Below are positions 6,703 through 60,541 of a stretch of DNA of 64,000 nt, one piece after another; positions within the stretch are counted from its first letter, which is position 1, and every line of letters begins with the position of its first letter. A program made the position numbers and the translations under genes. The notes beneath the pieces were generated by a model. The model did no database searches, had not been told where the DNA came from, and was given only the letters and a program-made list of their open reading frames with translations. The stretch lies in contig URLJ01000002.1 of assembly GCA_900548675.1 (NCBI GenBank), forward strand, positions 87,493 to 151,492, read 5' to 3'. Origin of the DNA: an uncultured Mollicutes bacterium (lineage in GTDB: Bacteria > Bacillota_I > Bacilli_A > ML615J-28 > CAG-313).

Positions 6703-7012
6703 CTCTTTCTGTTTCTTCTTGTAGAGTTCTCATAATTGCTTCAGCAAATCCCTTGTCGGTTAATCCGAAAACCATTGAAGAACGTTTTCCAACCGCAAAT
6801 GATAATTCCATAGAAGAATACTTTTTTATTAGTGGAATATGATAGAAGAAAGCTTTTTTCTCCATTTTATCAAGTGTCGAACTTGATGCATCACTTCCTA
6901 TTAGTATTAATTTAATCTTATTATTTTGTAAACTTTTAATCACACTATCTGTACCGATTACTAACTTGCCGCTTTTTCTTGCAAGCCCTATATACTGTAA
7001 AACTCTATCCAT
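6683..7012 (-). CDS. ylxQ: L7Ae-family ribosomal protein YlxQ
   Basis: [18 protein letters not shown] is the L7Ae/L30e signature. It lies between ylxR and infB. Confidence 0.8.
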
Positions 7013-8391: not shown

Positions 8392-8401
8392 AATATTCCT
8401 C

Positions 8402-8893: not shown

Positions 8894-8956
8894 ACCCTTT
8901 CAAATTAAAGAGTGAGCATAGCCCACTCTTGCTAATCACGATTATCAAGTACTTAA

Positions 8957-8985
8957 ATATTATCACAAATATGAAAAAAAGTCAA
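8957..8985 (-). promoter_or_regulatory. sigma-A type promoter of the rimP-nusA-infB operon (-35 TTGACT, 17 nt, -10 TAATAT)
   Basis: The minus strand reads TTGACTttttttcatatttgtgaTAATAT. The 5' UTR that follows contains the hairpin 8909-8935. Confidence 0.55.
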
Positions 8986-9113
8986 GCAATAGACAAATAA
9001 GGTGATTATAAGAAGAGCATTATCAAAATAACGATAGGAAAATTTCAAAAAACATTTTTGTTGGATAACTCATCTTTTTTATGATTAGTTTAAAATTTAA
9101 TGGATTATTTACT

Positions 9114-9142
9114 TGCATGAAAAATGAATCTAAGGTAAAATA
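9114..9142 (+). promoter_or_regulatory. sigma-A type promoter (-35 TTGCAT, 17 nt, -10 TAAAAT) for the uridine-kinase-like gene
   Basis: TTGCATgaaaaatgaatctaaggTAAAAT, followed by the SD AAGGAG and the ATG at 9163. Confidence 0.5.
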
Positions 9143-9162
9143 TAGATAAGGAGAAAAAAGAA

Positions 9163-10827: not shown

Positions 10828-10854
10828 TCAAATAAAAACTAGACCTATAAAAAA

Positions 10855-10894
10855 GAGGCCATCACAAACGTAAATGTTTGTGATGGCTTTTTTT
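10855..10894. terminator. Bidirectional rho-independent terminator between the convergent genes
   Basis: Stem gccatcacaaac / gtttgtgatggc with loop gtaaat. An A-tract lies upstream and a T-tract downstream. Confidence 0.8.
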
Positions 10895-11501
10895 AATAAT
10901 TATAATTAACTACTATTGAAACTTCTTTACCTGCAATTTTATATGTTACATTATAACGAGATATTTTATCATTATTGCACTTTACATCTATTATGACATT
11001 AGTAATACTATTTGTTTCATCTAAAGTTAACCCAAGTATTTCTTTTGCAGCATCTTGTGTTAAATAACCATATATTTTTGAAACACTTCTGCCATAGGAA
11101 ACAGAATAATCGCCTCCTGAAAATGAATTTTCATTTAATACTTTTTCGATGGAAAGTTTATTAGGCATTTCATCCTTGTTTAAAGTTTTAGTAGTTTCTT
11201 CACATAAATATAAATCTCCATACGGATCGCTATTTAAAGTATACTTTTGTTCTTTAAAAGTGATTTCTGCACCAATTTCATATGATTGTAATGTGTACCC
11301 TACTTTGGTGGCATTATCTGTTATTGTCATTTCAGATTCTATTTTCTTGCATCCTTCAGTATTGCTTATTTGCGTTTTAACAAGTTCTAGAAGTTCTTTT
11401 TTTGTTGTTTCATCTATAACATTATTACTACTACATGATGCCAAACAAATTAAACTTATAAATAGTATAAATAAACTAGATAGTTTTATTATTTTTTTCA
11501 T
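10893..11501 (-). CDS. Small lipoprotein (202 aa), last gene of the giant-protein operon
   Basis: Signal peptide with lipobox MKKIIKLSSLFILFISLICLASCSSNN. No recognisable catalytic motifs. Confidence 0.6.
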   Translation of the reverse strand: MKKIIKLSSLFILFISLICLASCSSNNVIDETTKKELLELVKTQISNTEGCKKIESEMTITDNATKVGYTLQSYEIGAEITFKEQKYTLNSDPYGDLYLCEETTKTLNKDEMPNKLSIEKVLNENSFSGGDYSVSYGRSVSKIYGYLTQDAAKEILGLTLDETNSITNVIIDVKCNNDKISRYNVTYKIAGKEVSIVVNYNY

Positions 11502-11513
11502 TTTACTTTCCTC

Positions 11514-23900: not shown

Positions 23901-24064
23901 AAATTTTCATTAGAATCTAAAGCACATATTTCTTGTAAACTTTTCCCTATTTTAGCAGGTTCTTTAAAACCTTTATCACCACTATTTCCTCCGCCACATC
24001 CTACAGCTACTACTGCTAGTACTAATACTAACAACATTCCTAAAATTTTTTTGATGTTTTTCAT
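20912..24064 (-). CDS. Large lipoprotein (1050 aa) with an internal duplicated roughly 100-aa module and a beta-helix-like C-terminal region
   Basis: Lipobox MKNIKKILGMLLVLVLAVVAVGCGGG. The units ...KATDLNGENRVVVIGSTASTNALTWDKEKGVYTFSNPSNFLTNEKT.. and ..KVTDLDGNNKIVVLGSTMTRKALSWDDQTGEYEFNNPKDFLSNEKT.. are repeated. Asn/Gly-rich beta-helix-like repeats follow. Confidence 0.8.
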   Translation of the reverse strand: MKNIKKILGMLLVLVLAVVAVGCGGGNSGDKGFKEPAKIGKSLQEICALDSNENLKKAYRTTVLVESWGNNLSYDDDAASETGCFKATDLNGENRVVVIGSTASTNALTWDKEKGVYTFSNPSNFLTNEKTKGIKIGYELELLVVRDDVKGTTLSAIIVKVTPHEKPVVHPEPEIEVLDLTEIIKKDESLDLKYAYKTTVKVSGFGSTEKEELAPTSIGALKVTDLDGNNKIVVLGSTMTRKALSWDDQTGEYEFNNPKDFLSNEKTYAIQIGDKLDVILVKVSDVNYVAVIIGINHTEETLLTYANYADKNLEVLMRKNASNTRVATLYTDIKDISKVSVKFSLSEKDAAEVITLAEVNPLTNNYYFGCFIKPTNKLEGVFKLTCSITQKDTGVKLFDVETLEVKIYSNYVSLAIDNDEMPVKVVSGSFTEIPTLGYYSFDSATSLKSLIPFDKDHKMRLPLIGMLSNGSEKIDYSKLILTSSDEDILTIGEDGYFYLGGKTGLVEVDVIDKNNLNTSTSIKLNVLSNGINISTYEELMVCSKNIEDKEYVMVLKNNIMLAPELEKMTKDDNYEKYALSCLTTMDPTCDVTYYKNTGKLKDAVIRYAVEISTDLYGNGYAISADNLTQLLNKKFGTRVYRGPIDLVRYNKDYNGAPNNLAVKSQDNIIFAVLKDNINIHNVELKGCNDESIASSNGEYDLTNLDYCGTVLEIVGDNCNVSYSRINNGRTAVRVFGKAHTDTTFNPSDYRITATFSKTLFTNAREFLLKIGTNQVMKTTRVTNKTISTTQDAITNVSYYDDASPYLSNGTKNYVIDNNNYKDEKFYNNYILTDITVQNCVFMNAGLFSIGLEAMFGGLVLHGWDFSDNFKFGSELGWGGISGTSYPALLRLKDDVRFYDWKKVSSVNSDTLIEGIKDSNGNLTTVASKIGFNLDFSSLLKEYYDEDISHEKILASYNGETYVNGAIAYYGGGKNYSCVALDEATSTAKEDLHDYTVDVDYFSPSNPKFIYYTAGKEKFRFLLYDATSSLTVEKQEKDIFDTSAYDILKDK
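23164..23881 (-). repeat. Intragenic duplication of two roughly 300-bp units separated by about 400 bp
   Basis: Visible at the DNA level (compare 23340-23420 with 23740-23820) and at the protein level. Confidence 0.55.
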
Positions 24065-27451: not shown

Positions 27452-30421
27452 TTAATTTTCTATTATGACTAGTGTTTGACCACCACTAACTGTTTCACCT
27501 TTTTTTACCCATATTTCTTTAACTGTCCCTGATATTGGTGAAACAATTTCGTTTTTTAACTTCATTGCTTCTAAAGATAATAGCGTACTTCCTTTAGGCA
27601 CTTTATCACCAACATTTACGGCTATATCTAATACTTCTCCTGCCATTGGGGCTTTAATTATTTCTCTTACTTTTTCTAAGGATGGTTCACTATTAAAATC
27701 CACATCAGTATCAACAATTATGATAGGTGCTATACCATGTCTTTTTTGATATACAAGTGATGATTCTTTTTCACCTTGGTTAGAAACGACGAAACATTTA
27801 TCAATAACAGTTGGGAAAGGAGTTCTTAAAAAGTAACTACCTTTTTTATCAAGTGTCGCACATCCTTTAGCAACAGCATAATCTGTAGGTCTTTTTACAT
27901 CTACTTGATCGATATAACAAGGTATCGTTACTTTGTCAATAGTGTTTTCACAAACACATCCAAGATATAGATTATTGCTGTTGTTTGCGGTATTAGGAGT
28001 AGTGTATATACTATTATCTACATTCATAGGTAGTATATATGTATCTAGTGCGTTGTTAAAGGCTTTTTTATAAAATTCATTATTAAGCCAACTGCGTACA
28101 TCAGAATATTCATAGTTATTAGGTTTAATCATTTTACCATCAATCATTCGTTCACGACACATTGAGGCATATTCTTGTCTATCAAGAATAGTTTCACTTA
28201 ATAAAATATATGCACTTTCTTTTCCTTCATCATTTTCAGTTTTTTGAACTGTCCATTTAATTGGCATTACTTTAAAGTAATAAGTTTTACCAGCCTCAAG
28301 AGCAGTTTGATCTGATGTGTAGTAATTACTAATATTAACATCAGCTACTACTTTTTCGTAACGTGCTCCGTCACTTCCCAAATAGTAACCATCTTTATCA
28401 GGGGTATCACTTGTTATTTTAACATATTCTTTTTTTAAATCTTGAGGATATTCTCCAAAATAAATGGTTTCACCATCTTTTTTTCCACCAATAGATGCCC
28501 ATTTAACTTTTAAAATGATTGTAGCAGTTTTATCTTCTGATACGGTATATTTATCAACCACTAATTCATTTGATTCACCTATACCTGGTTTTTTAGCTAT
28601 TAAATGACCATTTACTAATTTAACTAATCCTCCATTACCATCGTATGTAATATCAATCTTAAAGCCTAGTGACATAAGACTTGTAATTGCTTCTTTATAA
28701 TAATTGTTATAAAGTTTAAGTTTAGCATCATACATACCATTCTTTATTTTACCCTTAGCGAAGAGCCCAAGTTTGGCATCTTTTTGTGGTATTACTTCTA
28801 TTACTGTTTCAGTAAATCCCGCTTGTTTTAATCTTTCATTTTCTTCTGTGATAAATTTTTGTCTTTCTGTATAACGCTTTTCTTTTACTTCTCGTTGTTT
28901 TAATTCTTTATAAGTGTTGTTAACTTCTACAAATAATGCTCTACCTTCATCATCTAAATCAATATTCGATAATAAATTATATGCAGTTTTAACATCGCCA
29001 TCGGCAAATGCCTTTCTTACTTTCGTATATGTCTCTTGCATATATTGATATGTATTCTGGCAATCTTCAAGTTTATCTTTAGCATCACAGAAATCATCTG
29101 CTTGAGTTAATTCTTCAATTGCCTCTTTGTAATTATTAGTTAAAATATAATTTACTGCAGCATCATAATGTTTTTTACATTCATTATTTTTTATTATCTT
29201 ATTGCTGATTGACAGTAACTCTTCTTTATATTCAGCGTCCGCAAAAGTTAAAGCTTTTTTAAAGTTTTTATTATTTGTAATATCACTCGTGTAATTAACT
29301 AAATCGCCGGCTTTAGTAAGTGATAAGTCGATTAACATTAATAAAAAGTAAGCTTTGGCATTTTCAGGATCAATATTTAAAATATTATCAAGAACTTCTT
29401 TGGCTTTAGGATAATCTTCATCACTGATTAAAATTTCACTTCTTCTAAGTAAAGGAGATACGTTATTATTGATATTTGTGTTTTGAATTGTTTGTTCCAC
29501 CACTATTTGCTTTTTAATGGTTCTATCAAAGATTTTATCAATACCTCTTACAAGATCTTGAATAAATCCTAATTTATTCATATCCTGAGCTTGGAACAAC
29601 GCTAATTCTTCTGGTAACTCGTAAGCTTCCATATCTCTGTAACATGGTATAATATATCTTTTTTGGTCCGTATCATCCATCATACTGATGAATCTACTCC
29701 ACTCATTTTTAACCCATACCGCATTATAATATTCTGGCTTTGTTCCTATTACAAGCATAACTTTAGCACTTGATAAGGCAGCATATATATATGGTTCATA
29801 CTTAGCACCAGGAATACTTTCAAGGGTTATTTTTGAGAAGAATACCCGGTATCCTTTACTTACTAATTCATCATATACTTCTTGGGCTATTACAGAATCC
29901 CTCGTTCTTTTTCCTTCAGAACTTGTTTCTTTATAACAAATGAATATATCATAAGGCTCTTCTTTTTGTGATATCATCAATATCTCTTTTTGCAATCTAT
30001 TGATTTCTTCAGCTTCTGCTTGATATATTCTTTTAGCTACCACGTCACTGTTTTCAATGGCTGCTAAATAATCAATGTCATCAAAAATTGATTTTAATTG
30101 TGTTCTATGACATGTAGGAATCTTTCTATTTGTAGCTTTATCATCAACATATTCTATTCCATATCTACAAAGTAATAATCCCCAGTGAGCTTCTGCATCT
30201 TTAGGATTTTCATTAATAATGTTTTCATATGTTATGATAGCTTTATCAAACATATTATTTAGTCTTAAACTATTAGCTCTGTTATGAAGGGCGGCTAGCT
30301 TTTCATTATCTACAATATTAGGAACCGTTTGTTCTCTTTCACAATATTCACATCTAGCCGTTGTGGCTCCTTCTGGAACGTTAATTATAGCCCCACATGC
30401 TTTACATTTAAATTCTCTCAT
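27452..30421 (-). CDS. Multidomain protein (989 aa). Domains in order: N-terminal C4 zinc ribbon, TIR domain, helical/TPR-like region, unknown beta-rich region, and a C-terminal biotinyl/lipoyl (BCCP-like) domain.
   Basis: Zinc ribbon: CKACG...CEYCE. TIR: YDIFICYKETSSEGKRTRDSVIAQEVYDELVSKGYRVFF...AKVMLVIGT...YYNAVWVKNEWSRF (about aa 155-290). C-terminus: IKAPMAGEVLDIAVNVGDKVPKGSTLLSLEAMKLKNEIVSPISGTVKEIWVKKGETVSGGQTLVIIEN, which matches the AccB biotinyl-domain consensus including EAMK. Confidence 0.7.
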   Translation of the reverse strand: MREFKCKACGAIINVPEGATTARCEYCEREQTVPNIVDNEKLAALHNRANSLRLNNMFDKAIITYENIINENPKDAEAHWGLLLCRYGIEYVDDKATNRKIPTCHRTQLKSIFDDIDYLAAIENSDVVAKRIYQAEAEEINRLQKEILMISQKEEPYDIFICYKETSSEGKRTRDSVIAQEVYDELVSKGYRVFFSKITLESIPGAKYEPYIYAALSSAKVMLVIGTKPEYYNAVWVKNEWSRFISMMDDTDQKRYIIPCYRDMEAYELPEELALFQAQDMNKLGFIQDLVRGIDKIFDRTIKKQIVVEQTIQNTNINNNVSPLLRRSEILISDEDYPKAKEVLDNILNIDPENAKAYFLLMLIDLSLTKAGDLVNYTSDITNNKNFKKALTFADAEYKEELLSISNKIIKNNECKKHYDAAVNYILTNNYKEAIEELTQADDFCDAKDKLEDCQNTYQYMQETYTKVRKAFADGDVKTAYNLLSNIDLDDEGRALFVEVNNTYKELKQREVKEKRYTERQKFITEENERLKQAGFTETVIEVIPQKDAKLGLFAKGKIKNGMYDAKLKLYNNYYKEAITSLMSLGFKIDITYDGNGGLVKLVNGHLIAKKPGIGESNELVVDKYTVSEDKTATIILKVKWASIGGKKDGETIYFGEYPQDLKKEYVKITSDTPDKDGYYLGSDGARYEKVVADVNISNYYTSDQTALEAGKTYYFKVMPIKWTVQKTENDEGKESAYILLSETILDRQEYASMCRERMIDGKMIKPNNYEYSDVRSWLNNEFYKKAFNNALDTYILPMNVDNSIYTTPNTANNSNNLYLGCVCENTIDKVTIPCYIDQVDVKRPTDYAVAKGCATLDKKGSYFLRTPFPTVIDKCFVVSNQGEKESSLVYQKRHGIAPIIIVDTDVDFNSEPSLEKVREIIKAPMAGEVLDIAVNVGDKVPKGSTLLSLEAMKLKNEIVSPISGTVKEIWVKKGETVSGGQTLVIIEN

Positions 30422-30435
30422 ATATATCCTCTTTT

Positions 30436-31134
30436 CTATTTAGCACTGCGTATTTTAATACTTCTTTCTTTTACTAAAGATATGACTTTATCTATTTGAT
30501 ACGATACCTTTTCATAATCATTATCATAGTATGCTGATTTCAAGGAGGAATAATTATCATTGATTTCATCTTCGATATCTTCTACAATGCTCGTAGAAAT
30601 AGGATCAGTGTAAATTATCAATTCATATAGTTTAGCGAATTTTTCCCTTAATGGTTCGTATTTAAACTCATTATTAAATACTTTTATATCATCCCTTAAT
30701 GTTTTCATAAACTCTTGTTTAGCCTTTGCTTCTGCTTCATTTTCCTTTAAGGCATCTTTATAAAATTCCACTTTAATAATGCTCATTACTTCTAATCCTA
30801 CGATTATTACATTAACTATTAATACGAACCAAAGCGGTACATTAAAGAAATTATTAAAAATCGTTACAAGTATTGTTATAATAAAAGTTACGACAAGATA
30901 TATCAAACTAACCCTTACAAGAGGGATGCCGTATACCTTAATTTTTAAGTTTTTTTCTTTGTAAAAAGCTGCATAAAATGTATATAATTGAGCCAAAATA
31001 GCTACCATCATAAAGATATATGAGGTAATATAAACACTTAAATTTACATAGTTAAAAGGGATTATGAAATAGCATAAAGAGAATATTAAAGCAATTATAC
31101 CTAACGCAATAATAAATCTAATTTTATTTTTCAT
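30436..31134 (-). CDS. Membrane protein (four N-terminal TM helices plus a cytoplasmic charged/coiled C-terminal domain), the middle gene of the operon
   Basis: Hydrophobic helices within aa 8-120. The C-terminal region is rich in E/K/D and Y. It is separated from both neighbours by 2-14 nt. Confidence 0.55.
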   Translation of the reverse strand: MKNKIRFIIALGIIALIFSLCYFIIPFNYVNLSVYITSYIFMMVAILAQLYTFYAAFYKEKNLKIKVYGIPLVRVSLIYLVVTFIITILVTIFNNFFNVPLWFVLIVNVIIVGLEVMSIIKVEFYKDALKENEAEAKAKQEFMKTLRDDIKVFNNEFKYEPLREKFAKLYELIIYTDPISTSIVEDIEDEINDNYSSLKSAYYDNDYEKVSYQIDKVISLVKERSIKIRSAK

Positions 31135-31136
31135 AT

Positions 31137-32864
31137 TTATTCACCCTTTTTTGTTCCGCAATTAGGACAGAATGGTGTCGTTATATTTTTCATCCCACAT
31201 TCACAATCCCAGGTATTATTTGTTGTAGGTTTCTTACAGCCACACTCTGGGCAGAATGGTGTCGTTATATCACTTTTTCCGCAGTTAGGACAAACCCAAG
31301 TATTGTTCGGTGTCGGTTTTTTACTTCCACAATTAGGGCAGAAAAGTGTTGTTACTTCACTGTGACAATTAGGACAAGTCCATTTATTTTGACTTACTGG
31401 TTTTTCTTCTTTAAGATTTAACGTTGGATTGACCGTGTTTTTAACAGTACTAGCTACTTCACCCATTACTCCAAGGCCTACTCCTAAACCTACCATATCA
31501 TTCATCAATCCTGTCACTCCCCCTACTTGACCTTGATTTTCCATAGCAGCTTTAGCAACTTGACGTTGTGTCTCTTGTTGATATGTGTAACCTTTCATTT
31601 GCATTTCCTTAGCTTCAGCTTCAGCCTTTAGGCGATACGCTTCAGCAGATGCTTGCGCTTTGATAATTTCTTCTTGAGCGGCCGTTTGTGCCTCAACCAT
31701 TTTACGTTGTTGTGCGGCTTCGGCTTCAGCTTTTTTGATGCGTTCTTCTGCCACAAGCAAATATTTTTCAGCATATTGTTCTTTTAAACGTTTGAAGTTT
31801 GGATCATCATCTGGTGTCATAATTGTTGTAATAAAGAATTCTGGCATTATCAAGCCATATGCTTCGAGGGCTCTATTAATTTCATTCTTCAAAACATTTG
31901 ATATTTCTTCAATGTGTTCATCTACTTCTAAAATATTGATTGCTTCTTCTCTTATTGTCTTAGCCAAGAAAGACTTAACTTTAGCGGTAACTAATGCTTT
32001 GAATTTTCCTTTCATTCCCACATTTGAGTAATCACTTCCCATTAAATCATTTTGATTTAATTCACCTGTTGTACCTACTACTTTTATTAAAAGTTTTCTT
32101 GGATCATTAACTTTAATATTAAACTCACCACAGGCACCTAATTCAACATGCATGCCTGTTGCGGGATCAAACATTCTTATACGTGTATCAGTTCCCCATT
32201 TTATGCCCATTTGCGTTGTTAAATTAACATAGTAAACCTCTGCATGGAACATATTTGTATCTGATACAGTTGGAAGCTTATAAGTTTTATTTAATAATGG
32301 AATATTATCAGTATTAAGTGTGTATCTACCAGCTCCGAAGGAATCAAGAGCTTTACCATCTTTTAAGAATACAGCTTCTTGTGATTCATGAACAATAAGT
32401 TGTGTTCCCAAATTGAAATCTTCAACAGGATGTTTCCATACTAAGACATCATTAGGTCCTTCATATTTTATTACTGATATTATGCCATCTTTAGTCAAAT
32501 TTTGTTTTAAAATTTGTTCTTTAACATTAATTGTTGTATCACATAAAGGGCAAGTATATGTTGTAGCATTTTTATCTACCGTTAACTCGCAAGAACAAGT
32601 TGGACATTTGATTTCAGCAGTGTTTTTTAACGCATCTTCAGTTGCAAGTTTTTCTTTACAAATAGGACAAACAGCTTTGTTTCCTTTTGATTGATCATAA
32701 ACCACAGTGTTCTTACAATGAGGACAAACAATTGATTTCATCTTATCCTTTTTAATATTTATTACCATACCACAAGTACATTGGATATTCTTTTTTGAAA
32801 AAATTGATGTTGATGCTTCATTATAAGCACCGCAATGTGGGCATTCAATTACAAATTTTGCCAT
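31137..32864 (-). CDS. SPFH/band-7-like protein of the YdjI / 'virion core protein' (PRK13665-like) family, flanked by three N-terminal and three C-terminal C4 zinc ribbons
   Basis: Core HESQEAVFLKDGKALDSFGAGRYTLNTDNIPLL...VNLTTQMGIKWGTDTRI and an Ala/Glu/Gln coiled coil. The N-terminus has three CxxC..CxxC units. The C-terminus repeats W.CPNCG....ITTPFCP.CG.KKPT.NNT three times. Confidence 0.6.
   Translation of the reverse strand: MAKFVIECPHCGAYNEASTSIFSKKNIQCTCGMVINIKKDKMKSIVCPHCKNTVVYDQSKGNKAVCPICKEKLATEDALKNTAEIKCPTCSCELTVDKNATTYTCPLCDTTINVKEQILKQNLTKDGIISVIKYEGPNDVLVWKHPVEDFNLGTQLIVHESQEAVFLKDGKALDSFGAGRYTLNTDNIPLLNKTYKLPTVSDTNMFHAEVYYVNLTTQMGIKWGTDTRIRMFDPATGMHVELGACGEFNIKVNDPRKLLIKVVGTTGELNQNDLMGSDYSNVGMKGKFKALVTAKVKSFLAKTIREEAINILEVDEHIEEISNVLKNEINRALEAYGLIMPEFFITTIMTPDDDPNFKRLKEQYAEKYLLVAEERIKKAEAEAAQQRKMVEAQTAAQEEIIKAQASAEAYRLKAEAEAKEMQMKGYTYQQETQRQVAKAAMENQGQVGGVTGLMNDMVGLGVGLGVMGEVASTVKNTVNPTLNLKEEKPVSQNKWTCPNCHSEVTTLFCPNCGSKKPTPNNTWVCPNCGKSDITTPFCPECGCKKPTTNNTWDCECGMKNITTPFCPNCGTKKGE
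31140..31376 (-). repeat. Three tandem roughly 80-bp direct repeats encoding the C-terminal zinc-ribbon units
   Basis: The DNA-level unit recurs as ...ggacagaatggtgtcgttatat... / ...gggcagaatggtgtcgttatatc... / ...gggcagaaaagtgttgttac... Confidence 0.6.
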
Positions 32865-52708: not shown

Positions 52709-52783
52709 TGGAGCAGGTAACGAGGATCGAACTCGCATCTTCGCCATGGCAAGGCGGTATAATAGCCATTATACGATACCTGC
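52709..52783 (-). tRNA. tRNA-Gly (anticodon GCC), CCA-encoded, discriminator U
   Basis: The minus strand reads GCAGGTATCGTATAATGGCTATTATACCGCCTTGCCATGGCGAAGATGCGAGTTCGATCCTCGTTACCTGCTCCA. The acceptor stem is a 7-bp perfect pair. The T-arm is GCGAG/TTCGATC/CTCGT. The anticodon loop is TTGCCAT. It is one nucleotide shorter than canonical, so either position 26 is missing or the anticodon stem is 4 bp. Confidence 0.6.
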
Positions 52784-52803: not shown

Positions 52804-52832
52804 ATTATACCAAAATGCTCCACTTTATGCAA
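52804..52832 (-). promoter_or_regulatory. sigma-A type promoter with extended -10 (-35 TTGCAT, 17 nt, TGgTATAAT) driving the tRNA
   Basis: The minus strand reads TTGCATaaagtggagcattttggTATAAT, with about a 20-nt leader before tRNA position 1. Confidence 0.55.
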
Positions 52833-52869: not shown

Positions 52870-55800
52870 TTAATTATTAAATACACCAGGAAGAACACTA
52901 AATAGTGTTATTTCATTTTTATATCCTTCTTTTTCAATTGTTACAGTATAACTTAGACATTCACTATATAATGGTTGATCGTATGTGCGACCATTATTGC
53001 GTAAATGATCAAGTGAGTTAGACTTAGCCGTGATTGTATATTCAGCAAAGTTACTTCTTCTGTTATACTCGGCTTCAACCAAGCTCATAAAGTGATACCA
53101 AAGTTTATTATCTCTCATTGTTTCTGGACAGTTTTTACCACTAAAGAAATGATGTGGTTTTACTCTTGAGGTATCAAGATTATTTTCCATTAATAGTTTG
53201 GCTACAAGGTTGGCTGTTTTTTGCCATGTCATATATAAGTCAGAACCTTGGTTTACGCATGTTTCAATGCCTATACTATTGTTGTTACCACCATAGTTTG
53301 ATATTTTTTGATATGTTCCATTATAGTATGTTTTACCTAAATAATAATATCCGTCATCACCAACAACATAATGAATACCGATATCGTTTATCGCTGAAGT
53401 TTTAAGAATATATCCATTATTAGTAGGAGCTTTTATTCCTGTATTTTTATTATTAATTAAATAGTATCCTTCAGCATCTATTGTAATTTTTACATCTTCT
53501 ACTTCTTCTGCAAGAACTTTTGTTTTAAGTAAACCATATTTAACATCTGTACCATCACCAGCATGGTATGCCACTTCATTATCTGGCATTTGGTGATAAA
53601 TTCCATCATTACCAACACTATAATGCCATGATGTACCGCCGCCACCAAGGTCCGCTACATATTTAGCGTGAGCTAAAGCATCAGCAGTACTTTCACTCGA
53701 TGCTGTATCATGAACAGTTATGAATTCTGTTGATTCTTTAATAGTACCTGGACGATTTGATCCAAGTGGAGCGATGTATTCAGTTATAGCGTTGTTACCA
53801 AAGAATAGCTTAGAAACACTTGATAAAATGTCATGATAATAAACAAATTTATAACCTGTTACAAGGATATTTGGTTTTACCATTACTTCACTATTATTTG
53901 CTTCAAGTATCATTTTTGTTACTTCATCTATTTTTTCTAAAACTGTTACACCGAGAGTCATCTCGTGTTCTGTATCTGGTATATATGCTTTCACCATTAC
54001 GATGCCTGGGGCTTTAGCACTTAAAGTACCATTTTCAATTACAGCTATTTTTTCATCGCTAACTTCCCAAACTAGTTTTGATGCATCAAGCCCATCAAGC
54101 ATGGCATTTATTCTTAAATCATCATTTACTAAAACCCATGAAGTGCTTTCGTATCTGAGTTCAATTCTAGCCGGTACATCAACTTTTACAGTGAATTCTT
54201 TTACCATTTCTCCACTATAATTTAGATATGCTTTTACCTGTACTTCACCTTTTTTAATTCCGTGCATCACACCATCTTTATCAATTGTCAAGATTTTTTC
54301 ATTCATACTAACAAATGTAACGCCTAAAACATTACTGCGATGTGGTATATAATCAAATGTAATAGGTGTCGATCCAAATAGATCAGCTTGAAGTGTTTCA
54401 GCGATTTCTATTCCGACAGGATAGATTAAGTCTTCTTTCACAGATTCTTTTTTATACATTACATTTGTTAAATTATCTAAAACACTTACTTTAGTGTTAA
54501 AGATGAAAGAATAAATTTCTTCACCTAAATCACTATAGTTACGGTCATAAGCTATTGACATTGTTGAAGCACTATTTACTACATCTTTAAAAACATAATC
54601 TAGATTATTGTTGTTAATAATTATATTATGTTTTACATTTATAGAACCTTTATTATTTTCATCAACAATGTTAATGTTAAACATTTTTGGTGTAGTAATA
54701 AAAGTATTATACATTATATTAATGTTTAATATACCATCATGACTCTTACCATTGATTACTATCATTTCGCCCATAACACGTTTTATATTATTACGATTAA
54801 TAAAGACTTCAAGGGCACTAGTATCTGGTGAATTAAATAATGATTCCGTAACATTTTCAATAACGTTATCATCTATTTTAATAATTCCTGTAGCTTTAGC
54901 AATCACAATCACATTTTTAGCACCTTTAACAATGTTTTTGGTAAAGGTCAAATCAGATGATTCTTCCATTGTTAGGATGGTATCATCATTTTTTTCAAAA
55001 TATGAATGAGTAACTGTAGCATTACCTTTTAAATAATTAAGTGTTGCATTACTATTAAAATAACTATATGCGATAACAGAACCTAAAGCGTTTATAGTTA
55101 CTTTGTCATTTATCACCAAACCATTCAACTCTACATTAACAGCATTGATATTTACTTTTCCTAAAATTACTTCATCATTTCTTACAAAAACTTGCGTTTT
55201 AGCATTAGCAGTTATAATTTTAATGTTAGGTGTTTTGATGGTTAATTCTTCTGCACGATAGTCACCTTTATATACGTAGATAATCCCATTTTCAGAAACT
55301 TTTTCCAAGGCTTCTGCGATTGAGCTAAAAGCAGTTTCGCCCATTTTGAACTCTACACCTTGGCGCTCAATTATCGTTCCTACTGAAACAGTTTTTAATG
55401 CATTATCTACTATAATCATTTCTTTATTCAATATAGTAGTATATTCTAAATATTCTTCATCATAATTCTTAATTACTAGGCTATTATTGATTTTTAAATT
55501 TGACGCAGGAGATAAGAAATTACTTTTAATACTTTCATTGTCACCTGTTTTTGTAAGATAGATGCTTTCACCTTTTTCTAAAATTATTTTTGTTGGAGTT
55601 TTATAAGTTGTTTTAATAACGCCGTTGCTTATAACAGAAGCTCCATTTCCAAAATAACTATTGCCATTTGCATCTTTTAAAGTAGAAAAGTCAAGTGTAA
55701 CTCTACTAGAAGCATTATTAATTAATAGTGTTGCATATAATGGGTTTTCTATAGATGCATTCGTTAAATCGCTCTCTTTTGAAAAACCAAATACGTTACC

Positions 55801-57333
55801 TTTTAAAAGGAAAATAGTATAAGCGCCGTATGTGATACTATATTTACTCCATCCGATAACATCACTACTTCCTGTTTCATCAGCACTTAATACTCTTGGA
55901 TCATTTCCATAATATAATCCTCTTTTAGAAGTCTCAAGAGCACCATAGTTAACATCTATTTCTTTTGTAATGGTTATATCACAATATGCAAATGTATATC
56001 TCACTTTAGAAATATATGTTTTTATTAATTCTTTAAAGTGCGCTCCTGTTGTTAAATCATGAATAGTCTTATCTTGTTCATTTACGTATTCCCATGTAAC
56101 AAACGCATTAGAAACAGATGGTGTTGGAAATTTATAATCAAATGTTATATGCTTAGGAACACTATTAATTATCTCATCACTAATATTCTTAATTTCATCT
56201 AAATTTAAATATTCTATTTCCTTATTAGCACATAATACCTCTAAACATTTATTTAATTTAATAATGGAATCATAAGAAACGTAAGCTAATACTTCATCAC
56301 TTAAAGAGTAGTAAGTAGTGATGACTTCCTTAACAATTTCTTTTTTAGCAATAATGCTTGCATCGTCATTTGGAATAGCCTTAACTGAGGCATCAAATTG
56401 TAGTGCGGCTTTTTCTGCTTTATCAAGTAAATCTTGTAATTTTTCAATCTTCTTAAAGATGTTGTTTAATACTTTAATATTTTTTACAAGACTTTTAGCA
56501 TCTTCATGAAGGGCATCATATTTATCTTTCACAATTAAAATATCTAAGATGTCTTCATATTTAGGATTACTATTTAATTTTGAAATCATTTCATCAAGTG
56601 AAAATGCTTCTTGAATATGAACTTGATGTTTAGCTAAAGCTTCTTTTAATGCTTCTTCTTTTTCAACTAATACTTGATAGTTTCTAACTATTACTTGTGC
56701 ACCATACTCAAGACTGCGATATATTTTTCTCGTGTTTGTTACTTTTTCTTCATCCGTAAACTTTATTTCTTTAGGAAGAGAAGCTATAGCGATTTCAGCT
56801 TCAAGAGCGTACATCATATTGCGGTTTTTAATTAAAATTTTTATTCTTTCATTAAAGTTATTATATTTTTCCATTAATAAAAGATAATCATCGCTTGCTG
56901 TTGATGATTCGTAATTAAAGTTTTCAACCTCTTTGTCGAACTCTTCTGCTTTTTTAGCTATATCCATATCGACTAAACTTGGGTTAATGGTTATTTCTAA
57001 CTCAGCATAAAGATCATCTTGCCCTTCATAGCGCATTATGATTAGGGCAGTTCCTTCTTTTTTGCCAATAATGTTATATGTTCCTTCTTCTAAAACAGCA
57101 TTGTCTGTATCAATTTCAATTATTACTTTATTTATATCTAATGAATCATCTAAATCAAGAATTAGTTCTAGTGACTCATCGACATTTACACTAGTTATTT
57201 CATTTTTAAACCCAAATTTTTTAATTGTAGGTTTAGGCGTAGATGCAGGGCAAGCACATACGCTTAAAAATAAACCTATCATCATAGGTATCACAAATAG
57301 TAATTGTAAATAGTTTTTTCTTTTTATTTTCAT
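52870..57333 (-). CDS. Giant lipoprotein (1487 aa) with a helical/coiled N-terminal region, a beta-helix-like core, Big_2 Ig-like domains and a C-terminal Amidase_2 (PGRP-type) domain
   Basis: Lipobox LFLSVCACPAS. Big_2-like GVMHGIKKGEVQVKAYL.. and GTLSAKAPGIVMVKAYI. Amidase_2 within about 53100-53770: FITVHDTASS...TSWHYSVGNDGIYHQMPDNEVAYHAGDG...NNNSIGIETC...HHFFSGKNCPETM, with an 80-aa Tyr/Gly-rich insertion. Confidence 0.75.
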   Translation of the reverse strand: MKIKRKNYLQLLFVIPMMIGLFLSVCACPASTPKPTIKKFGFKNEITSVNVDESLELILDLDDSLDINKVIIEIDTDNAVLEEGTYNIIGKKEGTALIIMRYEGQDDLYAELEITINPSLVDMDIAKKAEEFDKEVENFNYESSTASDDYLLLMEKYNNFNERIKILIKNRNMMYALEAEIAIASLPKEIKFTDEEKVTNTRKIYRSLEYGAQVIVRNYQVLVEKEEALKEALAKHQVHIQEAFSLDEMISKLNSNPKYEDILDILIVKDKYDALHEDAKSLVKNIKVLNNIFKKIEKLQDLLDKAEKAALQFDASVKAIPNDDASIIAKKEIVKEVITTYYSLSDEVLAYVSYDSIIKLNKCLEVLCANKEIEYLNLDEIKNISDEIINSVPKHITFDYKFPTPSVSNAFVTWEYVNEQDKTIHDLTTGAHFKELIKTYISKVRYTFAYCDITITKEIDVNYGALETSKRGLYYGNDPRVLSADETGSSDVIGWSKYSITYGAYTIFLLKGNVFGFSKESDLTNASIENPLYATLLINNASSRVTLDFSTLKDANGNSYFGNGASVISNGVIKTTYKTPTKIILEKGESIYLTKTGDNESIKSNFLSPASNLKINNSLVIKNYDEEYLEYTTILNKEMIIVDNALKTVSVGTIIERQGVEFKMGETAFSSIAEALEKVSENGIIYVYKGDYRAEELTIKTPNIKIITANAKTQVFVRNDEVILGKVNINAVNVELNGLVINDKVTINALGSVIAYSYFNSNATLNYLKGNATVTHSYFEKNDDTILTMEESSDLTFTKNIVKGAKNVIVIAKATGIIKIDDNVIENVTESLFNSPDTSALEVFINRNNIKRVMGEMIVINGKSHDGILNINIMYNTFITTPKMFNINIVDENNKGSINVKHNIIINNNNLDYVFKDVVNSASTMSIAYDRNYSDLGEEIYSFIFNTKVSVLDNLTNVMYKKESVKEDLIYPVGIEIAETLQADLFGSTPITFDYIPHRSNVLGVTFVSMNEKILTIDKDGVMHGIKKGEVQVKAYLNYSGEMVKEFTVKVDVPARIELRYESTSWVLVNDDLRINAMLDGLDASKLVWEVSDEKIAVIENGTLSAKAPGIVMVKAYIPDTEHEMTLGVTVLEKIDEVTKMILEANNSEVMVKPNILVTGYKFVYYHDILSSVSKLFFGNNAITEYIAPLGSNRPGTIKESTEFITVHDTASSESTADALAHAKYVADLGGGGTSWHYSVGNDGIYHQMPDNEVAYHAGDGTDVKYGLLKTKVLAEEVEDVKITIDAEGYYLINNKNTGIKAPTNNGYILKTSAINDIGIHYVVGDDGYYYLGKTYYNGTYQKISNYGGNNNSIGIETCVNQGSDLYMTWQKTANLVAKLLMENNLDTSRVKPHHFFSGKNCPETMRDNKLWYHFMSLVEAEYNRRSNFAEYTITAKSNSLDHLRNNGRTYDQPLYSECLSYTVTIEKEGYKNEITLFSVLPGVFNN

Positions 57334-57350
57334 ATTGCCACCTCTTAAAT

Positions 57351-57379
57351 ATTATACTATTTTTTTGTGTTTACCGCAA
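57351..57379 (-). promoter_or_regulatory. sigma-A type promoter (-35 TTGCGG, 17 nt, -10 TATAAT) for the amidase lipoprotein gene
   Basis: The minus strand reads TTGCGGtaaacacaaaaaaatagTATAAT, then the SD AAGAGG. Confidence 0.5.
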
Positions 57380-57397: not shown

Positions 57398-57430
57398 CAA
57401 AAGAAAAAGAGGATTAACTTCCTCTTTTTA
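57398..57430 (-). terminator. Rho-independent terminator after the small membrane protein gene
   Basis: aaagaggattaacttcctcttt stem with a U-tract on the minus strand. Confidence 0.65.
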
Positions 57431-57456: not shown

Positions 57457-57921
57457 TTAGTAAGTAGTTTTGGTTTTATTTGAATAATTGTAGTATGCTT
57501 CATCTTTTTCTTGATATTTTTTAATACCTTCAATAATTGTAAAAATACTAGAAACTAGTAATAATAAAGCACCTACAGATCCTATTAACAAGTATGGAAC
57601 AAGCCACATAAGTCCTGTCATAATAGCAGCTACGCTATATTCGACAACACCAATTAACATTAGAATTGAGCCTGCAACTTCAGAATAAAAACTAATTGAA
57701 GCACCGACAATGCCGACAATACCACTAATTATAGCCATAATAGCTATTACTATTCCCATATTACCAAATTCAAAAACATATCCATTTACCCATGCTCCAC
57801 CTAACGCAAAATACGTTATAAAGGCGGTCATTAATAAATTAAAGATAGCACCAACTAAGCCTAATACGAAAGGAAACTTTTCCCTCGAAAATTCTTTTGG
57901 ATATTTTTCGTTATTCTGCAT
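57457..57921 (-). CDS. Small membrane protein (four TM; DUF4064-like)
   Basis: 154 aa of Gly/Ala-rich hydrophobic helices and a C-terminal charged tail. Confidence 0.5.
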   Translation of the reverse strand: MQNNEKYPKEFSREKFPFVLGLVGAIFNLLMTAFITYFALGGAWVNGYVFEFGNMGIVIAIMAIISGIVGIVGASISFYSEVAGSILMLIGVVEYSVAAIMTGLMWLVPYLLIGSVGALLLLVSSIFTIIEGIKKYQEKDEAYYNYSNKTKTTY

Positions 57922-58035
57922 AATGTCCTCCTCCTATTTTTGTTCATTATTATTTTTTGATAAATAGCATTTTTTATGAAAACCTAATTTTGTAAAATTT
58001 TTATTGTTACATATTGTGACACCAAAAAATTATAA

Positions 58036-58075
58036 TAAAAACAACATAACTAAAACAATTAGCTATGTTGTTTAT
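58036..58075 (-). terminator. Terminator after rpsD
   Basis: aacaacata...tatgttgtt stem followed by a T-rich tract on the minus strand. Confidence 0.5.
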
Positions 58076-58097
58076 TACTGCTTATTAGTGATTAATA

Positions 58098-58697
58098 CTA
58101 ACGATTGTAGAATTCAACAATTAGATTTTCACGAATGTCAGGCATAATTTCGCTTCTTTCAGGATAACGAACAAATGTACCTGTTAATGTATTTTCATCA
58201 AATGAAACAAATGGAAGACGAGAAACTGTAGCTTCTAAAGCATCTTTAACAATTTGTAAACCTTTTGAAGATTGTTTTAAAGAAATTGTTTGACCTTCTT
58301 TTACTAATAGTGAAGGAATGTCAGCTTTTTTACCATCTAGTAAAACATGTCCATGAGTAACTAATTGACGAGCTTGACGACGAGTTGTTGCGAAACCCAA
58401 ACGATAAACTAGGTTGTCTAATCTTGATTCTAATAAGAATAAGAAGTTGTCACCTTGTTTACCAGGGAATTTAGCAGCTTTGTCAAATAAAGTTCTAAAT
58501 TGTTTTTCGTTAACACCATATGTGAAACGAACTTTTTGTTTTTCTTGTAATTGTAATCCATATTCAGAAAGTTTTGCACGGCGTTGACCATGTTGACCTG
58601 GTGCATATGGACGTTTTTGTAATTCTTTACCATTTTCTAAAATAGAAAATTTTAATCTTCTTGATAACTTCCAAGAAGGACCTGTGTAACGTGCCAT
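58098..58697 (-). CDS. rpsD: 30S ribosomal protein S4
   Basis: [15 protein letters not shown]...S4 domain. Length 199 aa. Confidence 0.97.
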
Positions 58698-58877
58698 TTT
58701 ATTTTCTCCTTAAGTTTAAATTTATTTTTTAGTGGATAAAAATATTCAAACGCAGATAATAGGAAAGGTTATCTTATTGCTTTCGCCTAAGCAGCGAGAC
58801 TACTAACATCCTAAAGTGATAATCTTTTAAAAAGTGATAATCTTTTTTCTATTACTATTTGAATGCTGCCTTTATCG

Positions 58878-58906
58878 CACCTATAGTATTATACTCTTTT
58901 TTTAGT
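58878..58906 (-). promoter_or_regulatory. Consensus sigma-A promoter (-35 TTGACT, 17 nt, -10 TATAAT) for rpsD, followed by a roughly 180-nt leader
   Basis: The minus strand reads TTGACTttttactaaaaaaagagTATAAT. The leader contains a duplicated AAAGTGATAATCTTTT unit (58814-58846). Confidence 0.6.
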
Positions 58907-58992
58907 AAAAAGTCAAGGAATTAGATTCCCCATTACTTAAATAAGCCTTAAAATTTTAATATAACTAATAAGTCTTATTTATTTTATTTAGT

Positions 58993-59877
58993 CTATTCCT
59001 CTACTACAACATCATAGTTACTACCTATATATTTAAAGCCTACTTTTAAATATGCTTTATTAGAATATGGATTATCTTGATCTACAAATAAACTACAGCA
59101 CTTAAATCCTTCCTCAAAACTTTTTTCAACAAGTAGAGCAACTGTTGTTGAAGCATATCCTTTATTACGATATTTAGGAAAAGTATATACAAAGCTTAAA
59201 GCAGCGTGATCTTTTATTTTTCTCGTTATTGCTGCTAATGAAACAATAGTATTAGTTTCATCGTAGAATAAATATATTTTTTTATCAGCTATCATACTTT
59301 GAGCCATCTTCAAACATTCATCATCACTTTTTATTTCTTTAAAACAATCAAAACTAAAACCTTTAATCGCTGCTGCAATTTCTTTTTCGTCTTCTTGCAC
59401 GGCTTGTTTTAAGTATCCATCTCTATATTTGTCTAAAGAAATTTTTCCTATTTCCATTATATCCATTCTAATATTGATAAAAGCTTTTTTACCAAGAATA
59501 CTATTTGCTTTTTTTATAAAATACTCTGCTTCAGTAGGGTTCCCATTAATACCTTTTATCACTTTATTAGATGTTTTTACATATGTTAAAACGGAAGATA
59601 TCGATTCTTTTTCCTCTTCTATAGAAAGCGTTCTAAGCGGCATTATTTGTAATTTAAAAGGATAAGCATTTTGAAAAATCATAAGCTTTTCATTGTCTTT
59701 TTCTACATACCCAAAAAAGATATTTGAATCAAGAGAAACACCATCTTCTTTCTTTTGAAGATATATGTTTATGTTATGAATTATTAGTTGATTAACACTT
59801 ATATTGTTATATAGAAAATCATGAAATTGCTTTTCAAATTCTTCTATATCCGGTATTATAACAGTAACGTAATTCAT
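58993..59877 (-). CDS. GNAT-family N-acetyltransferase
   Basis: The C-terminal FPKYRNKGYASTTVALL is the acetyl-CoA binding motif. The ATG at 59877 is preceded by AGGAGG at a 7-nt spacer. The ORF-track N-terminal extension has no SD. Confidence 0.7.
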   Translation of the reverse strand: MNYVTVIIPDIEEFEKQFHDFLYNNISVNQLIIHNINIYLQKKEDGVSLDSNIFFGYVEKDNEKLMIFQNAYPFKLQIMPLRTLSIEEEKESISSVLTYVKTSNKVIKGINGNPTEAEYFIKKANSILGKKAFINIRMDIMEIGKISLDKYRDGYLKQAVQEDEKEIAAAIKGFSFDCFKEIKSDDECLKMAQSMIADKKIYLFYDETNTIVSLAAITRKIKDHAALSFVYTFPKYRNKGYASTTVALLVEKSFEEGFKCCSLFVDQDNPYSNKAYLKVGFKYIGSNYDVVVEE

Positions 59878-59970
59878 ATGTTTTCCTCCTAAAACAAGCA
59901 AAGTTTTGCATAAACGCATTCATTATATCATAGTTTCATTTTTCTATTTAAAAAGAAACTTATAAAACTT

Positions 59971-59999
59971 TTGAAGAAAATTTTTAAATATGGTATAAT
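59971..59999 (+). promoter_or_regulatory. sigma-A type promoter with extended -10 (-35 TTGAAG, 17 nt, TGgTATAAT) upstream of the pnuC remnant
   Basis: TTGAAGaaaatttttaaatatggTATAAT. Confidence 0.55.
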
Positions 60000-60115
60000 G
60001 CTCATACATTAATATAAATATTTGCCACCGGGCATAAGAATGTTAAGCATTCATATTACTTATCGTTAGATACTTGAAGATAAGTAAATGCGTGCTTATT
60101 TTTTTTGGAGAATAT

Positions 60116-60485
60116 ATGAAATTATTAAATAGATTTATAAAATATTTTTCTATAACTGAAATATTATTATAGTGTGGATCCGTAGTCCTAATTATCGTGT
60201 CATTCTGTATTTTTGATAGAGAAAACTACCTAACGCTTGCAGCATCACTCATTGGAGTAGCATCACTAGTTTTATAGCCGTATATCTAACTTTCAGAAGA
60301 AGTCCCTTTTATGCAGTGGTTATGCAGATAATGACATTGTATTAATTGTCTTGTGGATATTAGCAACACTGAAAAATTTATCTTACCTTTTTGTTGTTGT
60401 TTGTTTTGTTGCTTTTCTTGTAAATGATATTTATGGTTTCATAAATTGGCGAAAGCTTGAAAAAAAGCAACTTGCTGAAGTATAA
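60116..60485 (+). pseudogene. pnuC: Decayed pnuC (nicotinamide riboside transporter). It keeps an N-terminal fragment with an in-frame stop and frameshift plus an intact C-terminal roughly 70 codons. The middle is deleted.
   Basis: ATG at 60116 with SD GGAG, reading MKLLNRFIKYFSITEILL*. Continuing gives ..IFDRENYLTLAASLIGVASLVL*. A different frame (60270-60485) reads ..GYADNDIVLIVLWILATLKNLSYLFVVVCFVAFLVNDIYGFINWRKLEKKQLAEV*, a typical PnuC C-terminus. The total span is about 370 bp against about 700 bp for an intact pnuC. Confidence 0.6.
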
Positions 60486-60499
60486 TAAATACTTTTTAA

Positions 60500-60536
60500 T
60501 TAAAAAAAACGTGGGTGACCACGTTTTTATTTTTTA
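60500..60536. terminator. Bidirectional rho-independent terminator (end of pgk-tpiA and of the pnuC remnant)
   Basis: aaaaaaAACGTGGgtgaCCACGTTtttatttttt. Confidence 0.8.
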
Positions 60537-60541
60537 AGTTA

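Follow-up and report, generated by a model that had tools for sequence, protein, structure and literature searches.

On whose wall does a peptidoglycan amidase act when it is carried by a lipoprotein of 1487 amino acids (aa)? The question is raised by a gene on the minus strand of a 64,000-nucleotide (nt) stretch of DNA (contig URLJ01000002.1 of assembly GCA_900548675.1, positions 87,493–151,492; this whole stretch is hereafter called the window) from an uncultured Mollicutes bacterium of the GTDB lineage ML615J-28. An initial annotation, made from the letters alone, had described the product as a giant lipoprotein with an amidase domain of the peptidoglycan recognition protein (PGRP) type. 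We followed up this description by computational analysis. The results pointed to a putatively active zinc amidase that would be displayed on the outside of the membrane and whose gene appears to have been inherited vertically, and we give a somewhat better than even chance to its being an autolysin of the cell that makes it.

The 1487 codons ran uninterrupted, and the translation was 100% identical to protein P0001, the cluster of which (n = 25) is represented by dozens of metagenome contigs, NCBI entries among them. An intact open reading frame (ORF) with a signal peptide and a lipobox agreed with the 1487-aa lipoprotein of the initial annotation, and all the Amidase_2 motifs quoted there (ITVHDTA, SWHYSV, AYHAGD, NSIGIE, and PHHFFSGKNCPE) were present in the translation. 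Amidase_2 (PF01510; 68.9 bits against a cut-off of 26) and Big_2 (27.6 bits), each matched in two stretches, were the only Pfam families at E ≤ 1, and NCBIfam gave no family match with the whole protein as the query. The Amidase_2 match is in two stretches because an insert splits the core. In a phmmer search of the PDB, the nearest solved structure was that of XlyA, the PBSX amidase of B. subtilis (E 7e-24), and the halves of the module aligned to its residues 7–85 and 85–149. The halves abut at XlyA residue 85; therefore, the core is interrupted at a single point by 83–84 residues (aa ~1263–1346). The Tyr/Gly-rich insertion of about 80 aa reported initially was thus recovered, with 13% Tyr and 11% Gly. 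It was present in 56 of 56 aligned family members, in which N1316, Y1330, and T1335 were invariant, and AlphaFold2 (AF2) modelled it as β strands with a predicted local distance difference test (pLDDT) score of at least 85.

The zinc ligands H1208, H1394, and C1402 and the residues Y1238, E1357, and K1400 did not vary in either of two alignments, one of 14 and the other of 56 relatives. We take H17, H122, and C130 of T7 lysozyme to be the equivalents of these ligands, and Y46 and K128 of T7 lysozyme and E90 of PlyL to be the catalytic equivalents. An AF2 model of aa 1130–1487, based on the 56-sequence alignment, reached a pLDDT of 94 and a predicted template modelling (pTM) score of 0.93, so that the pieces of the module pack as one body, and the modelled core superposed on XlyA with a root-mean-square deviation (rmsd) of 1.3 Å. 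The tail that follows the core was matched, at the equivalent C-terminal position of five homologues, by aBig_2, the Pfam model of an “atrophied Ig” domain. From its sequence, the protein is predicted to be an active zinc N-acetylmuramoyl-L-alanine amidase with an intact active site, and a probable role of the Tyr-rich insert is to lengthen the glycan-binding groove.

At the N-terminus, the sequence MKIKRKNY...LFLSVCA/C comprises a basic n-region and a hydrophobic h-region, and MKIKRKNYLQLLFVIPMMIGLFLSVCA/C matched a PROSITE-type lipobox pattern. VCAC was kept in P0002, a homologue with 70% identity. The other large surface proteins of the window were either lipoproteins or had a C-terminal transmembrane (TM) helix, and the LPXTG motif was found in none of them; they appear to be anchored in the membrane rather than in the wall. 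The lipoprotein-processing genes lgt and lspA were not among the window genes. We infer that Cys28 carries the lipid and that the amidase is exposed on the outer side of the membrane, and the earlier description of a surface-displayed hydrolase is a fair reading of what looks, from its sequence, like a competent zinc amidase on a very long lipoprotein. Two further surface proteins of the window lie side by side on the minus strand, a 3120-aa protein that has three MBG_2 domains between its signal peptide and a C-terminal TM anchor and lacks LPXTG (11514–20876) and an adjoining 1050-aa lipoprotein without a Pfam match (20912–24064).

Between the lipid anchor and the enzyme lies a stalk (aa 29–1132), which was matched over its full length (query aa 1–1190) only by P0002 in an exhaustive HMMER search, other proteins matching in pieces. 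Outside Big_2, no part of the stalk matched Pfam at E ≤ 1, and a phmmer search of the PDB with aa 381–1000 gave nothing at E ≤ 10. An AF2 model of aa 1–1190 from a 2-sequence alignment had a pLDDT of 34.6, unusable for a fold search; the same weak model contained helices at aa 121–391 and a strand ladder at aa ~684–906 with a pLDDT of 50–60. As for the first domain, a Big_2 domain (aa 26–81) directly follows the lipobox in P0158, as it does in relatives. Of the helical region, aa ~176–390 were partly common to other large surface proteins, including a subtilase-bearing one, and aa ~380–630 were matched in 1200–1300-aa GHL10 glycosidase-like proteins and in the 2424-aa amidase P0158. The segment aa 641–960 was rich in Asn (13%), Ile (12.5%), and Val (10%). 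The Beta_helix family (PF13229) matched the relatives P0199 and P0240 in segments that do not align to aa 641–960, and BLASTP detected no similarity to the strain-variable Cthe_2159 β-helix protein of a closely related locus (L083). The labels “coiled-coil” and “β-helix” given to the stalk in the initial annotation are plausible, and its Big_2 domains were found by Pfam in two stretches at aa ~985–1132. This pair (aa ~985–1135) was the most widely shared part of the stalk, occurring in hundreds of 1000–3300-aa proteins. The stalks of relatives were mostly composed of Flg_new repeats (up to 13), Big_2, and Big-like domains, and the window protein contained no Flg_new. By Pfam, no second catalytic domain was found in the window protein or in the relatives examined, and no wall-binding repeats in it or in four relatives. 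The stalk would hold the enzyme tens of nanometres off the membrane.

The ratio of nonsynonymous to synonymous substitution rates (dN/dS) was determined against the orthologue of a sister species (L001). It was 0.215 for the whole gene, 0.29–0.35 for the stalk (0.35 in the helical region), and 0.04–0.18 for the module including the insert (0.11) and tail, while PGK, TIM, and RpsD gave 0.03–0.05; all of these values are rough, with dS near saturation. Because of the dN/dS of 0.215, we regard the gene as being under purifying selection, and it appears to be a functional gene that combines a fast-evolving stalk with a constrained enzyme.

A search with aa 1170–1487 yielded 544 homologues, the best of which had 45–53% identity over 93–99% of the query; nearly all were 350–390 aa long and had the same insert, in some cases in a longer version. 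With every GTDB species represented by a single genome, a scan yielded 263 relatives, and among the species-representative matches the species of the window itself did not occur. For the 75 distinct loci listed from these relatives, ORFs were re-derived from stop to stop. Most of these loci belonged to gut metagenome-assembled genomes (MAGs) of uncultured “Bacilli”, “Mollicutes”, Acholeplasmatales, Acholeplasmataceae, Anaeroplasma, and Erysipelotrichaceae, together with “Staphylococcus sp. CAG:324” and “Coprobacillus sp. CAG:698”, and a few bore evidently wrong labels. Near-identical or plainly related low-GC loci of the Bacilli type (L014, L015, and L016; L020, L023, and L040; L057, L058, and L065) carried discordant NCBI names, among them Prevotella sp., Bacteroidales, Oscillospiraceae, Eubacteriales, and Anaeroplasma bactoclasticum. 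The MAG labels are unreliable for the taxonomy of the clade.

The module was C-terminal in every re-derived ORF, with 38–57% identity across the family including the insert and tail. Two size classes were distinguished: small forms (n = 19; 361–409 aa stop to stop), none with a strict lipobox, and large forms (n = 66; 636–3178 aa), 56 of which had one; most of the remaining 10 showed a looser L-x-S-C by eye. The small forms start exactly at the module boundary, leaving no room for a signal peptide, and were located among housekeeping genes. Many genomes had a trio of a small, a ~760-aa, and a ~3000-aa protein, the latter two in tandem. In a neighbour-joining tree of the modules, the window protein grouped with that of L001 and a 1135-aa protein of L002, within the mid-size lipoprotein clade and adjoining the small forms. 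Because the module recurs throughout the family, size, lipid anchor, and insert are family traits rather than oddities. The size and domain mix had been considered exceptional for a cell-wall amidase, which does not hold for a family in which 66 large forms share the module. The well-known autolysins Atl and Aas also exceed 1200 aa. In the literature, no paper describing this amidase family or the insert was found.

As for the wall of the host, several sporulation-type genes were present within ten kb outside the window ends, on contigs with identical proteins: those of a 718-aa SpoIIE-like protein, a GerE-type regulator, YlbD_coat, YlbE, and YjcZ (YjcZ_2). The organism may be a present or recent spore-former, and because of these genes the host probably has a wall of its own. 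Among the relatives, a class A penicillin-binding protein (PBP; Transgly and Transpeptidase) was encoded directly downstream, at 0.6 kb, of a 911-aa lipoprotein amidase (L065 8891–14635), and a cluster of Mur-ligase, MraY-type (GT4), and Mur-ligase genes lay ~6 kb downstream of a 3112-aa member (L075 2258–20946). Neither adjacency was conserved at other loci; the regular-expression screen for peptidoglycan genes, which covered 1.48 Mb of loci with 20-kb flanks, had two positives and is uninformative as to absence elsewhere. Field et al. (2024; PMC10868615) predicted that RF39, RFN20, and ML615J-28 are a mix of walled and wall-less species, and inferred both that the RFN20/RF39/ML615J-28 ancestor had lost most lyt/cwl hydrolases and that sortases are missing from RFN20 and ML615J-28. 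With lyt/cwl hydrolases and sortases lost, another family of autolysins could have taken their place. According to Wang et al. (2020; PMC7301438), mraY and murG are present in most RF39 genomes and in few RFN20 genomes.

Considering these results, we favour, with slightly more confidence than doubt, a membrane-tethered autolysin that acts on the cell's own wall. In this model, the N-terminal lipid would fix the amidase on the outer face of the cytoplasmic membrane. The catalytic unit would be the last 355 residues, namely an XlyA-type core with its 84-residue insert, an N-terminal helix and hairpin, and the Ig-like tail, placed at the far end of a stalk of ~1100 residues that would consist, in order, of an Ig-like domain, the helical region, the β-rich domain, a probable β-helix, and two Big_2 domains. 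The enzyme would serve wall turnover or daughter-cell separation, and the lipid anchor and long spacer would do the work that falls to wall-binding repeats, or to anchoring by sortase, in classical Gram-positive autolysins. The initial annotation had preferred a hydrolase acting on other cells or during sporulation or germination over a housekeeping autolysin; the evidence, namely the sporulation-type genes and the PBP and mur neighbours, leans slightly the opposite way.

Several points weigh against this model. The Cys at lipobox position −2 is unusual, the fold assignments of the stalk are weak, and the identity of the stalk between the window and L001 is 59–69%, compared with 97% for PGK. 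Peptidoglycan synthesis in the host is deduced from the sporulation-type genes only, and the SpoIIE-like protein of L001, although a full-length match to TIGR02865, scored 203 bits against an NCBIfam equivalog cut-off of 490.8. The stalk modules are common to GHL10-type glycosidases and a subtilase, and would fit a surface digestive enzyme as well. Finally, MAGs that bear the labels Acholeplasmatales, Acholeplasmataceae, and Anaeroplasma also contain members of the family, and some members of these groups are predicted to be peptidoglycan-less (PMC10868615).

The last two points belong to the explanation that we regard as doubtful but as the foremost among the alternatives: the harvest or lysis of foreign peptidoglycan, in which the surface amidase with its long reach would take peptides from other gut bacteria, either off their walls or off fragments of these, the signal-less paralogue of ~380 aa would process imported muropeptides in the cytoplasm in the manner of AmpD, and the products would feed the genome-reduced cell or supply precursors of its own wall. 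Rumen anaeroplasmas were reportedly found to be bacteriolytic by Robinson and Hungate in 1973. Bacteriolytic rumen anaeroplasmas are also mentioned in PMC8941964. The family is concentrated in gut lineages with reduced genomes, including the MAGs with the three labels above, and some of these lineages are predicted to lack peptidoglycan or to depend on scavenged muropeptides (PMC10868615, PMC7301438). Harvesting would also suit the trio of signal-less small protein, mid-size lipoprotein, and giant lipoprotein in many genomes, the modules shared with GHL10 glycosidase-like proteins and a subtilase, and, in one lineage, a protein resembling MurQ (N-acetylmuramic acid (MurNAc)-6-phosphate etherase; E 1.6e-16) encoded 3.4 kb from the small paralogue. 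Against it, the sporulation-type genes indicate a probably walled organism, two family members have PBP or mur genes as neighbours, Pfam revealed neither a muropeptide transporter nor a gene of MurNAc catabolism near the amidase gene in the window, and the names of the MAGs cannot be relied on, Prevotella, Bacilli, and Anaeroplasma all being labels of near-identical loci. A broader version, to which we give similarly limited credence, is that the family underlies, at the molecular level, a “bacterioclastic” way of life among gut Bacilli that have reduced genomes and are nearing wall-lessness; stalks of 600–3000 residues would then reach past a thin or absent wall to strip foreign stem peptides. 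In a related and equally tentative reading, the length of the stalk would act as a ruler that sets the cutting distance from the membrane in the cell's own wall.

At the locus L079, a signal-less 383-aa family member (8001–9152) lies near two genes linked to peptidoglycan metabolism (10512–14423), which encode a β-lactamase-fold protein (PBP-related or D-peptidase-like) and a 610-aa protein whose N-terminus matches MurQ. These neighbours hint at a link to muropeptide catabolism.

Less probable still is a lytic enzyme of sporulation or germination, acting in engulfment, in cortex maturation or hydrolysis, or in mother-cell lysis. Besides the sporulation-type genes of the genome, this would be consistent with XlyA as the nearest solved structure, the XlyA/CwlA/CwlH group of Amidase_2 enzymes including a mother-cell lysis enzyme of B. 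subtilis. However, we know of no lipoprotein with a 1100-aa stalk among the sporulation amidases. The promoter, read by eye, is σA-like rather than σE-, σK-, or σG-like, which is a weak argument; the surrounding genes belong to glycolysis, the ribosome, and ABC transporters rather than to sporulation; and the family includes lineages described as non-sporulating (PMC10868615).

We find it more improbable again that the protein is mainly an adhesin, with a stalk of Ig-like, β-helix, and Big_2 domains that would bind mucus or cells and a secondary amidase, as in the staphylococcal adhesin-autolysins Aas and AtlE. The stalk domains are of kinds typical of adhesins, the stalk evolves fast (dN/dS 0.29–0.35), and its makeup varies greatly among relatives, with up to 13 Flg_new repeats elsewhere and none here. 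On the other hand, it is the amidase module alone that is conserved family-wide and under strong constraint, and neither Pfam nor the phmmer search of the PDB revealed a recognised ligand-binding domain.

The initial annotation had also raised horizontal acquisition on account of the adjacent tRNA gene. The G+C content of the gene (0.298) was close to the window value (0.299 ± 0.027), as was that at third codon positions (GC3; 0.178 against 0.186 ± 0.029), and its codon-usage distance of 0.014 was among the lowest in the window, so the deviation in composition that had been proposed as a check was absent. No integrase or recombinase was found among all window ORFs of at least 120 aa by Pfam, the 3′ end of the tRNA recurred nowhere in the window at up to 3 mismatches, and there were no meaningful direct repeats; in these respects, our scans gave the same outcome as the initial annotation itself. 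The arrangement at the tRNA-Gly was shared by relatives. The sister species (L001), with PGK, TIM, and RpsD of 97–98% identity, had a 1475-aa orthologue (70% identity) and the identical eleven-gene order ComK-PGK-TIM-GNAT-rpsD-154aa-gene-tRNAGly-Fer4-DNAalk-ABC-ABC, and L084 repeated the window arrangement. In the more distant L029 (PGK 84%), the slot between rpsD and tRNA-Gly held two lipoprotein-amidase genes, of 848 and 767 aa, the modules of which fell in a different clade of the tree from that of the window. This suggests paralogue replacement or recombination at a fixed slot, which was kept while its occupant changed over time. We conclude from composition and synteny that the gene was inherited vertically at a conserved chromosomal slot, which speaks against the proposed island status.

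A horizontally acquired island at the tRNA-Gly, or a domesticated prophage endolysin, is therefore very improbable; for it could be cited the adjoining tRNA, the prophage origin of XlyA, and the nearby strain-variable segment with its ~6.5 kb extra in L083, but the composition is typical of the window, an integrase and att-like repeats were not found in the window, the synteny is kept in L001, L084, and L029, and the family is essentially absent from IMG/VR. There, one weak partial match was obtained in 2.9 million viral contigs, and matches in BFVD spanned the core only. Both candidates were rejected, the tRNA island for its failure in integrase, att repeat, deviant composition, and patchy presence, and the phage or prophage endolysin in view of the housekeeping neighbours, the near-absence from viral contigs, and the lipoprotein signal. 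Likewise scarcely credible is a PGRP that has lost catalysis and does no more than bind peptidoglycan. Only the size of the insert within the catalytic domain had given cause to suspect it, whereas none of the zinc ligands or catalytic residues is missing or variable, and the core fits XlyA at 1.3 Å rmsd. Substitution of the ligands, which the initial annotation had considered, was not seen; both His residues and C1402 are retained and the typical Cys-to-Ser loss is absent, and binding-only function was rejected on that ground.

In comparison with known systems, XlyA (PDB 3hmb/3rdr) and the catalytic domains of the endolysins PlyL and PlyG were the closest, with the same Amidase_2 core. XlyA is a phage lysin of ~300 aa without a signal peptide and with a C-terminal wall-binding domain. 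The window core, in contrast, adds an 84-aa β subdomain, an N-terminal segment, and an Ig-like tail, and stands at the C-terminus of a 1487-aa lipoprotein without phage context. Staphylococcal Atl/AtlE (AmiA/AmiE, PDB 4knk/3lat) and the Aas of S. saprophyticus have a second catalytic domain, a glucosaminidase, and repeats that bind the wall or lipoteichoic acid, and Atl and Aas are proteolytically processed and not lipid-anchored. In the window protein, as in four relatives, neither glucosaminidase nor wall-binding repeats were detected by Pfam at E ≤ 1. It would work like a modular Gram-positive autolysin, yet it fails the defining features of Atl and Aas. E. coli AmiD, as generally described, resembles it in being a lipoprotein with a PGRP-type (Amidase_2) zinc amidase. 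AmiD is about 270 aa long, resides in the Gram-negative outer membrane, and has a PG_binding domain; unlike the window protein, it has neither stalk nor insert. AmpD and AmpDh, the cytoplasmic and periplasmic anhydro-MurNAc-L-Ala amidases, are far more distant than XlyA in both sequence and structure, and the window protein is predicted to be exported, not cytoplasmic as AmpD is. Within its own family, its stalk is common in full only to P0002, most relatives having Flg_new and Big_2.

The enzyme chemistry is ordinary, and it is the packaging that is not well known. One module with a lineage-specific insert has multiplied to give a cytoplasmic protein, a mid-size lipoprotein, and a giant lipoprotein; the clade in which this happened is without sortases and classical Lyt/Cwl hydrolases, and some of its branches have also lost the wall (PMC10868615). 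Some of the genes are ~9.5 kb long, and a tandem pair can occupy ~12 kb, in genomes that the literature describes as small. The family offers a handle on how thin walls may be remodelled without wall-binding anchors and on whether these gut bacteria feed off foreign peptidoglycan. Its 355-aa module, being small, confidently modelled, and easy to express, is a possible source of new lytic enzymes.

Features of the amidase gene, its surroundings, and related loci (positions refer to the window unless a locus is named).
Feature	Position	Strand	Basis
Complete lipoprotein amidase gene, 1487 aa	52870..57333	-	ORF, P0001 identity, dN/dS
Signal peptide with lipobox, aa 1-28, predicted lipidated Cys28	57250..57333	-	translation
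N-terminal β domain, aa ~36-118, probably Ig-like	56980..57228	-	low-confidence AF2 strands; Pfam negative
α-Helical region, aa 121-395	56149..56973	-	AF2 helices 121-391
β-Rich domain of unknown fold, aa 396-640	55414..56148	-	homologous stretches elsewhere
Asn/Ile/Val-rich repeat region, aa 641-960, possibly right-handed β-helix	54454..55413	-	composition, AF2
Tandem Big_2 Ig-like domains, aa ~985-1132	53938..54381	-	Pfam 27.6 bits
355-aa amidase module, aa 1133-1487	52873..53937	-	homologues, alignments A1 and A3, AF2
Amidase_2 core, N-half, aa 1191-1262: H1208, Y1238, H1257	53548..53763	-	Pfam, XlyA alignment
Tyr/Gly-rich β subdomain, 84 aa, aa 1263-1346	53296..53547	-	XlyA alignment gap, AF2
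Amidase_2 core, C-half, aa 1347-1425: E1357, H1394, K1400, C1402	53059..53295	-	
C-terminal β tail, aa 1426-1487, atrophied Ig-like (aBig_2-type)	52873..53058	-	
Candidate ribosome-binding site AGAGGTGG	about 57338-57345	-	by-eye sequence reading
Candidate σA-like promoter TTGCGG-17 nt-TATAAT	57351..57379	-	by-eye reading of the sequence
Hairpin and T-run, end of upstream 154-aa gene	57404..57428	-	sequence AAGAGGAagttaaTCCTCTTTTT, inference
tRNA-Gly(GCC), a neighbour and not part of the enzyme	52709..52783	-	ARAGORN; Rfam 52.3 bits
Sporulation-type genes	L081 9777-9989, 16388-17590; L083/L084 ~4464-6742; L001 191-2347		
Lipoprotein-amidase genes of L029	L029 5794-8340 and 9375-11678		ORF re-derivation
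Extra segment of L083	L083 11975-20365, versus L084 and window 57922-60541		

The window is ordinary chromosome of ~30% G+C throughout. Among its ORFs of at least 120 aa, Pfam recognised UvrC, IF-2, NusA, RimP, ThiI, a zinc ABC system, Fur, two ABC exporters, RpsD, TIM, PGK, and a ComK-like gene. Because a hairpin and T-run terminate the upstream 154-aa gene, the amidase gene looks separately transcribed; a scan for promoter consensus sequences showed no enrichment over shuffles. This upstream neighbour (57457–57921, minus strand) encodes a multi-pass membrane protein with a weak DUF4064 match, and it occupies the same position in L001 (79–84% identity) and L084. The tRNA-Gly(GCC) placed directly downstream by the initial annotation was identified by both ARAGORN and Rfam, 86 nt beyond the amidase stop codon and with a TTGCAT-17-TATAAT promoter of its own at 52804–52832; Rfam found nothing but this tRNA across the window. 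Strain-level variation was observed nearby, as L083, with an identical PGK, carries additional genes (~6.5 kb) in the interval from TIM/GNAT to rpsD, which encode a nicotinamide mononucleotide (NMN) transporter, a response regulator and histidine kinase, the 1169-aa Cthe_2159 β-helix protein, and a 184-aa ORF.

Elsewhere in the window, one neighbourhood looks defence-like, for which PADLOC gave no specific model match. It contains a 989-aa protein with TPR, TIR_2 (aa 159–283), DUF6273, and a C-terminal biotin/lipoyl-like domain (27452–30421, minus strand), and adjoining it are the genes for a 232-aa membrane protein (30436–31134) and a 575-aa SPFH/Band_7_1 protein (31137–32864).

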